Below the pieces are notes generated by a model, which saw only the letters and a program-made list of their open reading frames with translations, was not told the origin of the DNA and did no database searches. The position numbers were made by a program, and so were the translations under genes. This document shows positions 15,522-17,898 of a stretch of 22,017 nucleotides of DNA, piece after piece. Numbering within the stretch: the stretch's first letter is position 1; each line of letters opens with the position of its first letter. The stretch comes from Escherichia phage vB_EcoS-885R8. Where the stretch lies: the sequence record ON470602. One strand, 5' to 3'.

Positions 15522-16832
15522 TTAAATCCGAAGTGATGTGACTCTTCCGGTCGGTTTGACAATAGGGAATTGCTTAACGATGAAATAACCTCCGGCATCA
15601 TTCGGGTGATCATTGCCAGATTTTTTATCAGGCTCCCCCTTCTCATCCCAGACCTGTTGCTCCAGAGATTCGGCATATAACGGGCAACGCTTCACATTAA
15701 CTTTATAGCGACGCTCACCATTGGCATTGCAGAACATTGCATTCATTGAGTTAACGCGATCTTTTACTGGCGGGTTCGAGCTGTTCACCACAACGTTAAA
15801 ACCAGCCTGCTTAAGCTGGGCTATATCCGTCGTACTTGCGTTACTTGATTTTCTGGAATCCCCGGAAGCATCTGGATAAATATAAATTTCCCTCACTTTC
15901 CGGTAATCATTCCCATCATACAGCCAGAAGCGTTCTTTAATGATGCGGATCATATCCGGCGTATCGTAGGCATTGATGATTTCAGTTACCGCACATGGAA
16001 GCCCCAAACGCAGCACATGGACGATTCCCGCCATCTTTCCAACGTTAAAATCCATCCCAATATAAATCGGCTCCCCTGGCTGCTCCACTTCTTCGCAATT
16101 ATTCAGTTTCCGGTCAAACTGATGGTAAACAGTACCACTTGTCAGGTTAGTAAACTGTCCTCGCAGATAGGCTTTAATCAGCTCTGGAGGGTATGATTCA
16201 AGAAGCGAAGGAATGTAATCTGCTGGCAGGTTCTTTTCATTATCGAAAGTAGATGCCTGCACCAGACCATACAGTGAGGCCAGCTCTGTTTTTTCACGCA
16301 CGGCTTTAACAAACTGCTCGTAGACAAATTTGAATCCTTCCGGCGTGGTTGTAACGTCAATACCGTTGCGAAGTCCATCAATCTTATAACGCATACGCGC
16401 AATTATCTTGCGCCACGCCGTTCTGGCTTTTTCCTTCGGCAAAATGTCCAGTTCATCCACCAACGCATTACCAATTTTGAAACCGACGATCGTTTGTGGC
16501 TTCTCCATCGATCTGCAGATAGTGGTTCCCCGATACTGGCGTCCGTAATAAAAGTGAACCTCTTTATTTCCCTCATTAATTTTTACGTTCAATCCCCAGT
16601 CAGCAGCAACTTCTTCCACTGTAGGGTAAAAAATATCGCGAATTTGGGGATACGTTGGCGCAAAATATCCCTGATTTATACCTGGATGCTCCCAAATCCC
16701 CTTGCATATGCCGCCACACCCAACCCATGTTTTGCCCGAGCCAAAACCAGCAATATAGGCTTTAAATTTATGGGGCATTGAAAGAAATCGCGCCTGAGGC
16801 ACATTAAGCGTCGGAGAGATCATCTTCATCAC
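15522..16832 (-). CDS. terminase large subunit
   Basis: 436-aa ORF with a Walker A-like motif (AGFGSGKT) near the N-terminus and acidic nuclease-type motifs later (IYIGMDFN..., IYIYPDASG...). Confidence 0.85.
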   Translation of the reverse strand: MMKMISPTLNVPQARFLSMPHKFKAYIAGFGSGKTWVGCGGICKGIWEHPGINQGYFAPTYPQIRDIFYPTVEEVAADWGLNVKINEGNKEVHFYYGRQYRGTTICRSMEKPQTIVGFKIGNALVDELDILPKEKARTAWRKIIARMRYKIDGLRNGIDVTTTPEGFKFVYEQFVKAVREKTELASLYGLVQASTFDNEKNLPADYIPSLLESYPPELIKAYLRGQFTNLTSGTVYHQFDRKLNNCEEVEQPGEPIYIGMDFNVGKMAGIVHVLRLGLPCAVTEIINAYDTPDMIRIIKERFWLYDGNDYRKVREIYIYPDASGDSRKSSNASTTDIAQLKQAGFNVVVNSSNPPVKDRVNSMNAMFCNANGERRYKVNVKRCPLYAESLEQQVWDEKGEPDKKSGNDHPNDAGGYFIVKQFPIVKPTGRVTSLRI

Positions 16833-17898
16833 TCCTTACTCTGGCATCAACCACATTAATATTGATCGCCACAGGCTGGGGATGTTCATTATCTTCCACC
16901 GTTTCGATCTCTTTGCGCAGCTTCTGGTTTTCCATTCTGCGCCGTTCAATTTCCAGTTCCTGTAGCCGCTTATCTGCACATAAATCCCCGCCAGCAGAAA
17001 GCAAACGCAACAATTCACGCCGGGCGGCAGCCTTATCCTCCAGCAGGATCTCAACGCCGAATTTTCCGAATTTTGCCCCTGCATATAATTGCCGCGCATC
17101 CCCATCAAGCAGAGTGGTATCAGCCATATAAAGCTGTCCCGTTCCCTCACCGCAGCACTTCGGGCAGTCCGGATTGGGTATGGCGTTATCAACAAAGCCG
17201 AGGCCTCCATATTCCGGTTCGGGTTTGCCATCTCTGGAAGCCTGCGCCGCTGCCTTGTCGAATTCTGCTATATCGCGCCACTGGTAGAGATGATTCTCGC
17301 CCCAGCAATAACGGCAGTTAACACGGCGAAATTGTGCAAGCTGATTGGGGTCGGCCAGGACAATAGCCATCAACTGACTCACTAGTAAATCCAGGTCTGC
17401 GGTATAGCGTTTCTGGTACTGATTGCGGAAGTAGCTGATAGCGCGAAAAACCCTGGCATTTCTAAGCATACGACTGGCGTTGCTGTTAGCTGTCGCACCT
17501 TGCCCCTCATAACCGGCTAGTCGGTACGCCTCTGTCGGCTTTTTACCCTGAGCAACAAGCATCGCAAACTTAGCCTGCTGGTCAGAAATGCCGAATTCAT
17601 CGGGACAGAACGAAAATTCCTCCGCGTCGCCCTCATTCAGGCCCGCATCGAATACTGGCTTTTTTTCCTGAGATTTTTCGTTCCGCTTTTGTGCAGTCTG
17701 CGCAGATTTTTTCTGCGCACTTTTTTGCGCAGTTTTGCACATTTCTGTCTGCGCATTTTTCGGAGTTTTTTTGATGTAACGACGGGCTGTTGCGTAATTC
17801 AGTCCCCTTGCTTCACACCATGCCACCGGAGATATACCGGAGCGGGTGTATTCAGCAATATACTCCTGCTGCAACGCCCCCCAGTCCGGTCTGCTCAT
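16804..17898 (-). CDS. terminase small subunit, unusually long (364 aa), with an extra N-terminal HTH and a Cys cluster
   Basis: N-terminal HTH-like segment (GISPVAWCEARGLNYATARRYI), Lys/Gln/Ala-rich linker, then a Terminase_2-type signature (QQAKFAMLVAQGKKPTEAYRLAGYEG...SNASRMLRNARVFRAI), then CxxC...CxxCC; directly 5' of the large terminase. Confidence 0.7.
   Translation of the reverse strand: MSRPDWGALQQEYIAEYTRSGISPVAWCEARGLNYATARRYIKKTPKNAQTEMCKTAQKSAQKKSAQTAQKRNEKSQEKKPVFDAGLNEGDAEEFSFCPDEFGISDQQAKFAMLVAQGKKPTEAYRLAGYEGQGATANSNASRMLRNARVFRAISYFRNQYQKRYTADLDLLVSQLMAIVLADPNQLAQFRRVNCRYCWGENHLYQWRDIAEFDKAAAQASRDGKPEPEYGGLGFVDNAIPNPDCPKCCGEGTGQLYMADTTLLDGDARQLYAGAKFGKFGVEILLEDKAAARRELLRLLSAGGDLCADKRLQELEIERRRMENQKLRKEIETVEDNEHPQPVAININVVDARVRSDEDDLSDA
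17661..17772. repeat. phased A/T-tract and CTGCGCA-type repeat block inside the 5' part of terS (candidate pac site / bent DNA)
   Basis: plus-strand T-runs recur every 10-14 bp, interleaved with TGCGCA/CTGCGCA motifs; the same stretch encodes the AQK-rich linker. Confidence 0.45.

Follow-up and report, generated by a model that had tools for sequence, protein, structure and literature searches.

Why a small terminase should carry an additional N-terminal domain, a low-complexity linker and a cluster of cysteines in a chain of 364 residues is the question raised by the terS gene in the 22,017-nucleotide stretch of Escherichia phage vB_EcoS-885R8 that we analysed (sequence record ON470602; this whole stretch is hereafter called the window). 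The answer that we consider likely is that its product is the small terminase (TerS) of a headful (pac) Rac-type prophage and a mosaic of an N-terminal helix-turn-helix (HTH) domain, a G1P core, a zinc-type insert with four cysteines (the Cys4 module) and a C-terminal tail, with an array of short repeats in the linker-coding DNA serving as pac. The TerS function of the gene is already annotated, RefSeq E. coli genomes and Escherichia phage records labelling it 'terminase small subunit'; the Cys4 module and the repeat arrays appear to be undescribed.

A small terminase of the G1P type

The Terminase_2 profile of Pfam (PF03592) matches residues 122-321 of the terS product with 35.1 bits against a gathering cut-off of 26.1 (E=2.4e-8; profile positions 19-129 of 141), and phrog_51, annotated as 'terminase small subunit', matches it from end to end (E=2e-76); NCBIfam has no model for this TerS. 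A family profile derived from 105 diverse homologues and searched against PDB sequences recovered the G1P protein of SF6 (3zqp, E=1e-16; 4zc3, 3e-10; 2cmp, 3e-9 (profile 6-89)), the small terminase of Pam5 (21di, 1e-12) and, more weakly, the TerS proteins of PaP3 and NV1. The alignment with G1P falls into two pieces: profile positions 6-89 correspond to G1P 21-103, which comprises the HTH and the first oligomerisation helix, and positions 184-221 correspond to G1P 117-154, which takes in the second helix and runs into the C-terminal region. An AlphaFold2 (AF2) model computed with the multiple sequence alignment of the 105 sequences has a mean predicted local distance difference test score (pLDDT) of 85.3 (a single-sequence model, at 44.9, was discarded), and in it the DNA-binding domain is followed by a two-helix oligomerisation hairpin (helices 148-181 and 289-336), both arms of which align to G1P. 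A Foldseek search of the PDB recovered 4zc3, the HTH of SF6, with a TMt of 0.73 over 54 columns, and the TerS of PaP3 and NV1 also appeared, all with E>0.2; a structure search of BFVD recovered other predicted TerS only and added no functional information. Within the G1P-type HTH, F111 and A124 are nearly invariant in the 105-sequence alignment. Because the Pfam, PHROG and G1P structure matches agree, and terL and a portal gene lie downstream, the terS product is a small terminase of the SPP1/SF6 G1P (Terminase_2) type, as had been foreseen in the original prediction of a Terminase_2-type core.

A TGCGCA-type repeat array as a candidate pac site

The DNA that encodes residues 48-70, in the linker that precedes this core, contains six TGCGCA-type hexamers, namely four exact copies (17699, 17714, 17726 and 17750) and two with one mismatch (17690 and 17736), which are spaced 9-15 bp apart with A-tracts between the copies. 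Four of the 11 TGCGCA copies in the window fall within 57 nt, and four copies within 60 nt were seen in 0 of 1000 Markov-1 simulations. One of the mismatched copies, TGTGCA (17736-17741), holds the codon of Cys54, where most E. coli variants have an exact TGCGCA and a CGC arginine codon; the window allele thus has one repeat weakened by a single-base change from CGC to TGC.

Arrays are found at the same place of terS in Klebsiella phages (TGCGCA, 6 copies), Yersinia 29.18 (TGCGAA, 5 copies) and Providencia PSTCR3 (TGCGAA, 7 copies), and in each of the 54 distinct IMG/VR loci that encode this N-terminal HTH (TGCGCA/CTGCGC or TGCGAA/AATTCG, 4-10 copies), where the array often constitutes the majority of the motif copies within the 4-kb locus. 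The terS genes of F116, Bcep22, Skulduggery and BcepB1A, all without the N-terminal HTH, contain no such array. Three genes for zinc-type TerS with a different type of N-terminal HTH (L095-L097) have arrays of their own in the same place: CTGCGCAA occurs five times in L095, and the arrays of the other two are partly inverted, with two copies of GTTCGCA and then three of TGCGAAC in L096, and three copies of GGGGCAA and then three of TGCCCC in L097. No description of a TGCGCA-type repeat array was found in the literature searched.

The same N-terminal HTH and array are joined to three cores: 1) the Terminase_2 core with the zinc module (phrog_51); 2) a Terminase_2 core without the Cys4 module (phrog_32222), seen for example in Providencia PSTCR3, L083 and L088; 3) a non-Terminase_2 TerS (phrog_370), seen in L085 and L091-L093. 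The C-terminal tails are swapped independently of the core: the zinc-type TerS of Yersinia and the phrog_370 proteins share '...MKDGDKDNAIVVHNALPIPGR', the tail 'MKDGDKDNAIVVHNxLPIPGR' being common to the Yersinia zinc-type and phrog_370-type TerS (loci L003, L085, L092 and L093), and the zinc-type TerS of E. coli and Klebsiella have 'PVAININVVDARV' in common. As far as sequence comparison can tell, these combinations fit a TerS in which an oligomerisation core is combined with a cassette for specificity and a tail for docking TerL, the exchange of the tail being consistent with a TerL-matching module. Just upstream of the zinc-module terS of L095, a metagenomic contig, there is also a match to the Pfam AcrIF11 ADP-ribosyltransferase, an anti-CRISPR (799-1266, minus strand).

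The array is probably the packaging start signal (pac) of this phage; pac sites commonly lie inside terS, as in P22, Sf6, SPP1 and P1 (the hexamers of pacA). In favour of the headful route, the relative phiC725A, an F116-like phage, has a circularly permuted genome on which read coverage is highest from the terminase genes on (PMC5217972). Alternatively, the repeats could be a real cis element that is perhaps not pac and is read by something other than the N-terminal HTH, such as the G1P-type HTH, a regulator of the late genes, a nucleoid protein of the host or an 83-residue HTH-like protein whose gene lies just 5' of terS. Both the alternative role and these alternative readers seem to us unlikely. 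The 83-residue open reading frame (ORF), which has a TerS-like match to phrog_309 (8e-23), does lie 3 nt upstream of terS, and the A-tract-rich DNA of the array could draw bending proteins. However, the arrays are present in genes that encode an N-terminal HTH and absent from those that do not, over three unrelated TerS cores; the Klebsiella and Yersinia phages keep their arrays while their records have no ORF like the 83-residue one annotated directly upstream of terS; and a pac site within terS is the rule in P22, Sf6, SPP1 and P1.

The Cys4 module

The two pieces of the G1P alignment are separated by about 94 profile positions that stand in place of a 13-residue loop of G1P. The Cys4 module of about 90 residues is therefore inserted within the core, at the tip of the oligomerisation hairpin, and is not a C-terminal addition. 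The original prediction had a cluster of four or five cysteines after the Terminase_2 core; the cluster stands, but its place is within the core, and its fifth member does not hold. The protein has cysteines at positions 28, 54, 98, 195, 198, 245, 248, 249 and 307, and the codons from C195 (17314-17316) to C249 (17152-17154) span 17152-17316; translation of the ORF reproduces exactly both this span and that of the gene as they had been predicted, the strand, then unstated, being minus.

C195, C198, C245 and C248 are all kept in 113 of 114 representatives at 50% identity, an unbiased count over those with one alignment spanning residues 190-255; the lone exception is a 141-residue fragment that diverges after about residue 230. 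Position 249 is occupied by N, C, F, G, Y and other residues among homologues, and its variability rules out C249 as a fifth metal ligand. The same pattern, four invariant cysteines and a variable position 249, is seen in an alignment of nine phage TerS (E. coli, Yersinia 29.18, Klebsiella phi18.2, F116, Bcep22, PEp14, Skulduggery, BcepB1A and Xanthomonas Rb1), so that the conservation on which the predicted cluster hinged is borne out. A search of 1.84 billion representative proteins (50%-identity clusters) recovered 1,775 clusters at E<=1e-3, of which 1,260 reach E<=1e-10, and among the best 150 matches each one without the cysteine pattern is a fragment or a chimera that stops before the second knuckle. 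In the 105-sequence alignment no other part of the protein is as well conserved as the module: Y205, Q206, E212, G231, G232, G234, P241, P246 and D260 are at least 90% conserved, and the gap between the cysteine pairs ranges from 42 to 74 residues, mostly 46-47. To judge from these alignments, the Cys4 cluster is the hallmark of a large TerS subfamily that includes those of F116, Bcep22, BcepB1A, PEp14 and Skulduggery.

In the AF2 model, strands 188-193 and 253-258 flank the knuckles (pLDDT 97-98), with values of 94-98 for the module. The second knuckle is an invariant CPxCxGxG, and the first, CRxCxG, is without the last glycine, so that there are only two CxxCxGxG-like repeats. Among 23 module sequences, 13 gave sub-threshold matches to the Pfam DnaJ_CXXCXGXG family (PF00684; best E=2.4e-4), and others gave weak matches to rubredoxin-like (zf-ChsH2), zinc-ribbon and even cytochrome families. 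The module is covered neither by Pfam and NCBIfam models nor by the solved TerS structures that were matched (SF6 G1P, Pam5, PaP3 and NV1), and no solved structure in the PDB was found to cover it by sequence or by fold. Likewise, the literature searched yielded no account of a phage TerS with a zinc module, and the only terminase zinc fingers in it are those of herpesvirus pUL28/pUL56; a 2022 review of TerS mentions zinc for the herpesvirus subunits only (PMC9611059).

The spacing of the four cysteines suggests that they most likely bind one Zn2+, and the knuckle pair would then work like a zinc ribbon or a DnaJ-type finger while being filed in neither family. A protein in which they hold no zinc, forming instead an Fe(Cys)4 centre like that of rubredoxin, or else disulfides with a redox or a structural role, is improbable: CPxC(x)G is also the signature of a rubredoxin knuckle, and there are the weak zf-ChsH2 and cytochrome-family matches, but it was the DnaJ zinc-finger model that the CxxCxGxG spacing matched most often, and a structural zinc would, by analogy with known zinc ribbons, be the simplest explanation for two knuckle pairs in a phage assembly protein that is cytoplasmic and otherwise has no redox context.

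The N-terminal domain and the linker

The three-helix fold that AF2 predicts for residues 1-45 (pLDDT about 90) makes this domain HTH-like, as originally proposed. Sequence matches lie below threshold: the best for the query domain is NCBIfam IS66 TnpA (E=4e-4, below the cut-off), and the N-terminal 53 residues of homologues match HTH_28, HTH_23, HTH_29 and HTH_Tnp of Pfam. An N-terminal extension is found in about a quarter to a third of the family (occupancy 0.2-0.3; at least 45 extra residues in 33 of the 105 sequences), with at least two different HTH types among the extended members, and most members of the family have about 240-270 residues. Hence the 364 residues that had been called atypical do exceed the length of most members, but they are normal for the extended sub-branch. 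The remaining parts of the predicted architecture are also recovered: the linker is basic (11 K+R and 4 D+E among the 42 residues 44-85) and modelled with low confidence (pLDDT 40-57), and a C-terminal helix (289-336) leads into an acidic tail, with 7 D+E and 2 K+R in the last 28 residues.

The linker-coding DNA is unusual at synonymous sites. In 49 distinct linker sequences, 195 of the 213 alanine codons that stand before Q or N (92%) are GCG, whereas in the other parts of these genes the figure is 255 of 1,199 (21%); a T comes directly before the alanine codon in 207 of the 213 (97%), as against 33% elsewhere. As these sequences are related to one another, independent events are fewer than the counts make it seem, a point to be set against our interpretation; the pattern nevertheless holds across genera and motif types. 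Furthermore, 41 of the 242 motif copies lie in other reading frames, three frames being used, and encode L-R-T, M-R-K or C-A and not A-Q, and the inverted copies of L096 and L097 imply that the array is not derivable from an amino-acid repeat. The bias towards GCG and the preceding T, the copies in other frames and the inverted copies together indicate selection on DNA, not on peptide. The repeat array thus exists, is conserved and is under DNA-level selection, and the low-complexity linker is largely its protein-level shadow.

That the repeats are a side effect of a repetitive, low-complexity A-Q-K peptide and do nothing as DNA is accordingly a still more improbable reading than cysteines without zinc. 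The four exact copies in the window do share one reading frame and all encode Ala-Gln, and GCG and CAG are common codons in E. coli; nevertheless, the motif changes between lineages with its position kept, and the evidence from codons, frames and orientation rules out the repeats as a mere consequence of the peptide. An artefactual fusion of an HTH protein with a normal-sized TerS, which an ORF about twice the textbook length of a TerS, a linker predicted to be disordered and some chimeric or truncated database entries (P0122, P0123, P0006 and P0029) might suggest, has next to no probability and is ruled out by an uninterrupted and widely kept ORF, which is found identical and at full length in 852 complete E. 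coli genomes and several phage records, is kept in clusters of more than 1,400 sequences (1,423 in the 99%-identical cluster), has no internal stop and retains its single-ORF architecture in homologues of 40-54% identity, so that the two genes considered in the original prediction are not what is found. As a separate observation, the entries P0006, P0029, P0033, P0122, P0123 and P0182 each join part of a TerS to tail fibre, TAGT or terL sequences and look like prophage deletions or artefacts of assembly or gene calling, and for terS the record of phage Rac-SA53 itself speaks of a 'fusion of two genes by deletion'.

A proposed mechanism

G1P-type TerS form rings of 8-11 subunits with the HTHs on the outside, bind pac DNA and stimulate TerL. 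In the mosaic TerS proposed here, an HTH-like domain on a flexible basic tether would precede the canonical G1P-type HTH and a helical-hairpin core in which the loop has been replaced by the Cys4 module. The modules, at the tip end of the hairpins, might form an extra ring that stabilises the oligomer, and the conserved R191, R192, R196, Y205 and W207 might contact DNA non-specifically. The N-terminal HTHs of adjacent subunits would read successive repeats spaced about one helical turn apart, so that TerS nucleates on pac, reader domain and target repeats being inherited as one cassette. The long C-terminal helix and acidic tail would then recruit TerL, which would cut nearby and start headful packaging. 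What the gene is, how its domains are ordered, where the module is inserted, that the cysteines are conserved and that the repeats exist, are conserved and are selected as DNA is shown by the analysis. Metal binding, the geometry of the ring, the pac function, the reading of the repeats by the HTH and the docking of TerL by the tail are the parts of this scheme that we infer.

Several points weigh against it. The N-terminal domain matches no HTH family of Pfam or NCBIfam above threshold, and none of the Pfam zinc-finger models was matched above threshold by the 23 module sequences, the query's own module giving no match. AF2 models no metals, so that metal binding by the four cysteines is read from their pattern; the position of the module and its role in the ring are extrapolated from G1P; the pac function of the array rests on sequence evidence; and the seeming agreement between motif and HTH residue 39, TGCGCA going with R and TGCGAA with K, amounts to a contrast of two clades only.

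On a more general and more tentative level, which we put at somewhat short of an even chance, TerS specificity may be a self-contained, horizontally exchangeable 'pac cassette', in which an N-terminal HTH is held by a tether encoded by the very repeats that the HTH recognises, making the two inseparable by recombination, and which has been grafted onto at least three unrelated cores, one of them with an undescribed ring of inserted Cys4 zinc modules.

Features and genomic setting

The window is an intact-looking Rac-type lambdoid E. coli prophage. terS is one uninterrupted ORF from an ATG at 17898 to a stop at 16804-16806; an AGGA Shine-Dalgarno sequence lies 5' of the ATG, and the preceding ORF stops 3 nt before it. 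The features of the gene and its neighbours are given in Table 1.

Table 1. Features of terS, its product and the neighbouring genes in the window, with elements of the AF2 model
Feature	Residues	Position	Strand	Basis or detail
terS coding sequence	364 plus stop	16804..17898	-	ORF; Pfam Terminase_2 above cut-off; phrog_51
N-terminal extra domain, HTH-like	1-45	17764..17898	-	three short helices 6-20, 24-30, 35-38; AF2 pLDDT 89-95
Basic low-complexity linker, predicted disordered	46-100	17599..17763	-	pLDDT 40-57
Canonical G1P-type HTH DNA-binding domain	101-162	17413..17598	-	profile match to G1P; pLDDT 96-98
First oligomerisation helix	163-187	17338..17412	-	part of AF2 helix 148-181; aligns to G1P up to 103
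Inserted Cys4 module	188-286	17041..17337	-	strand, knuckle 1, helix 210-222, Gly-rich loop, knuckle 2, strand, beta-hairpin
Knuckle 1, C195-R-Y-C198 (family motif CRxCxG)	195-198	17305..17316	-	C195, R196, C198, G200 invariant in 105 sequences
Knuckle 2, C245-P-K-C248 (family motif CPxCxGxG)	245-248	17155..17166	-	C245, C248, G250, G252 invariant; P246 at least 90%
Second oligomerisation helix and long C-terminal helix	289-336	16891..17034	-	AF2 pLDDT 73-95; start = G1P 117-154
Strand-like hydrophobic segment (PVAININVVDARV) and acidic tail	337-364	16807..16890	-	pLDDT 53-59
Six TGCGCA-type hexamers, candidate pac / TerS-binding site		17690..17755	.	inside linker-coding DNA
terL (Terminase_6N + Terminase_6C)		15522..16832	-	start GTG 16832 or ATG 16823 (PGAP choice)
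ORF upstream of terS	83	17902-18153	-	phrog_309
TET-associated-type glycosyltransferase (TAGT)		18089-19042	-	Pfam TAGT 8e-35; phrog_842
ParB/Srx-like protein		19014-19805	-	
TrkG potassium transporter		19943-21418	-	
AF2: three short helices	6-38			pLDDT 89-95
AF2: low-confidence linker	about 45-90			pLDDT 40-57
AF2: G1P-type HTH	106-146			pLDDT 96-98
AF2: helix	148-181			pLDDT 80-98
AF2: strand	188-193			pLDDT 97-98
AF2: helix	210-222			pLDDT 98
AF2: strand	253-258			pLDDT 97
AF2: beta-hairpin	272-286			pLDDT 97
AF2: one long helix	289-336			pLDDT 73-95
AF2: acidic tail, low confidence	337-364			pLDDT 53-59

Immediately downstream of terS come terL, the portal gene, with matches to phrog_145 ('portal protein') and to Pfam DUF4055, and a capsid gene of the P22 type. 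The start of terL is ambiguous between GTG 16832, ATG 16829 and ATG 16823, each following a GGAG, with PGAP picking the last; its 5' end overlaps the 3' end of terS by 20-29 nt, depending on the start, which suggests translational coupling. terS DNA is present in 896 of 5,426 complete E. coli genomes, 852 of which cover at least 80% of the gene, and is 99.7-100% identical in the listed vB_EcoS Escherichia phage records (including vB_EcoS-606R9), nine phage records matching at 99% or more. In E. coli strain 144, which has an identical gene, the order is racR/kilR and, further on, lysis genes, trkG, ParB/Srx, a hypothetical (TAGT-like) gene, a small ORF, terS, terL, portal, head and tail; this homologous region also has ydaS/T and the anti-phage genes iteA/iteS. 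The trkG gene inside the prophage is a hallmark cargo of Rac-type prophages.

The 83-residue ORF directly upstream of terS, for which the PGAP version has 69 residues, matches positions 145-218 of the 319 in phrog_309, 'terminase small subunit', and no Pfam family; it may be a further small protein of packaging that binds DNA. The glycosyltransferase gene is labelled 'hypothetical' in RefSeq, while its phrog_842 match is to 'beta-glucosyl-HMC-alpha-glucosyltransferase'. It lies with the ParB/Srx-like gene between trkG and the packaging genes, and the two may constitute a DNA-modification module; no TET/JBP partner for the glycosyltransferase was found among the ORFs inspected. In the unrelated locus L097, a ParB_N-methyltransferase fusion is encoded upstream of terS.

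Comparison with known packaging systems

With the G1P proteins of SPP1 and SF6 (3ZQP/3ZQQ, 4ZC3 and 2CMP) the protein shares a homologous HTH and both oligomerisation helices, at the E-value of 1e-16 given above, and likewise a gene placed directly upstream of terL, these being packaging systems of the pac type. It differs in having the Cys4 module where G1P has its short loop, in its second, N-terminal HTH and tether, both of which G1P lacks, and in its C-terminus, which is predicted to be a helix of about 48 residues where G1P ends in a beta-barrel. Closer in sequence (30-32% identity, with all four cysteines and the surrounding motifs invariant) are the TerS of the Pseudomonas phages F116/phiC725A and Skulduggery, the Burkholderia phages Bcep22/BcepIL02/DC1/BcepB1A and PEp14 of Erwinia. 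These are shorter, with about 260-270 residues, end in other C-terminal tails and have no N-terminal HTH, tether or repeat array in terS. F116-like phages are headful packagers and generalised transducers (PMC5217972).

The module in part resembles the cysteine-rich domain of DnaJ (PF00684) in its knuckles, the second being a perfect CxxCxGxG and the first a CxxCxG, and it resembles zinc-ribbon and rubredoxin-like knuckles in that its two knuckles would, by their sequence, jointly hold one metal. Unlike the DnaJ domain, however, it would have one metal centre and two knuckles instead of four, with a helix and Gly-loop insert of 42-74 residues between them, no match at the Pfam threshold and no chaperone context. 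The herpesvirus pUL28/pUL56, an accessory or DNA-recognition subunit of the terminase with cysteine-based zinc fingers (PMC9611059), is comparable by analogy only, having an unrelated, all-alpha fold of about 85 kDa with no sequence similarity detected.

As for the array, the pac of P1 consists of hexamer repeats TGATCA/G in pacA, and SPP1 has pacL and pacR boxes; these resemble the present repeats in being short, clustered in or at the start of the small-terminase gene and, presumably, contacted by several protomers of a TerS oligomer. TGCGCA contains no GATC, and a Dam control like that of P1 is therefore not expected. Moreover, unlike those of P1 and SPP1, the array described here also encodes the tether of its putative reader domain.

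Implications

Small terminases choose the DNA that is packaged, and on this choice depend generalised and lateral transduction, the hijacking of phages by satellites and the design of vectors based on phagemids or transducing particles. The Cys4 subfamily is large, as the 1,260 clusters at the stricter threshold attest; it extends to phages of the F116 and Bcep22 type, and the prophage with the present gene occurs in about 16% of complete E. coli genomes. The structure of a TerS with the Cys4 module would reveal a new construction of the TerS ring. If the arrays are pac, they would offer a simple sequence rule by which to find pac in hundreds of enterobacterial prophages, as well as a compact and portable specificity unit of about 70 bp and about 45 residues for packaging engineering. 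In that event the same bases would also carry a DNA signal and code for a protein tether, which is a clear example of dual coding.

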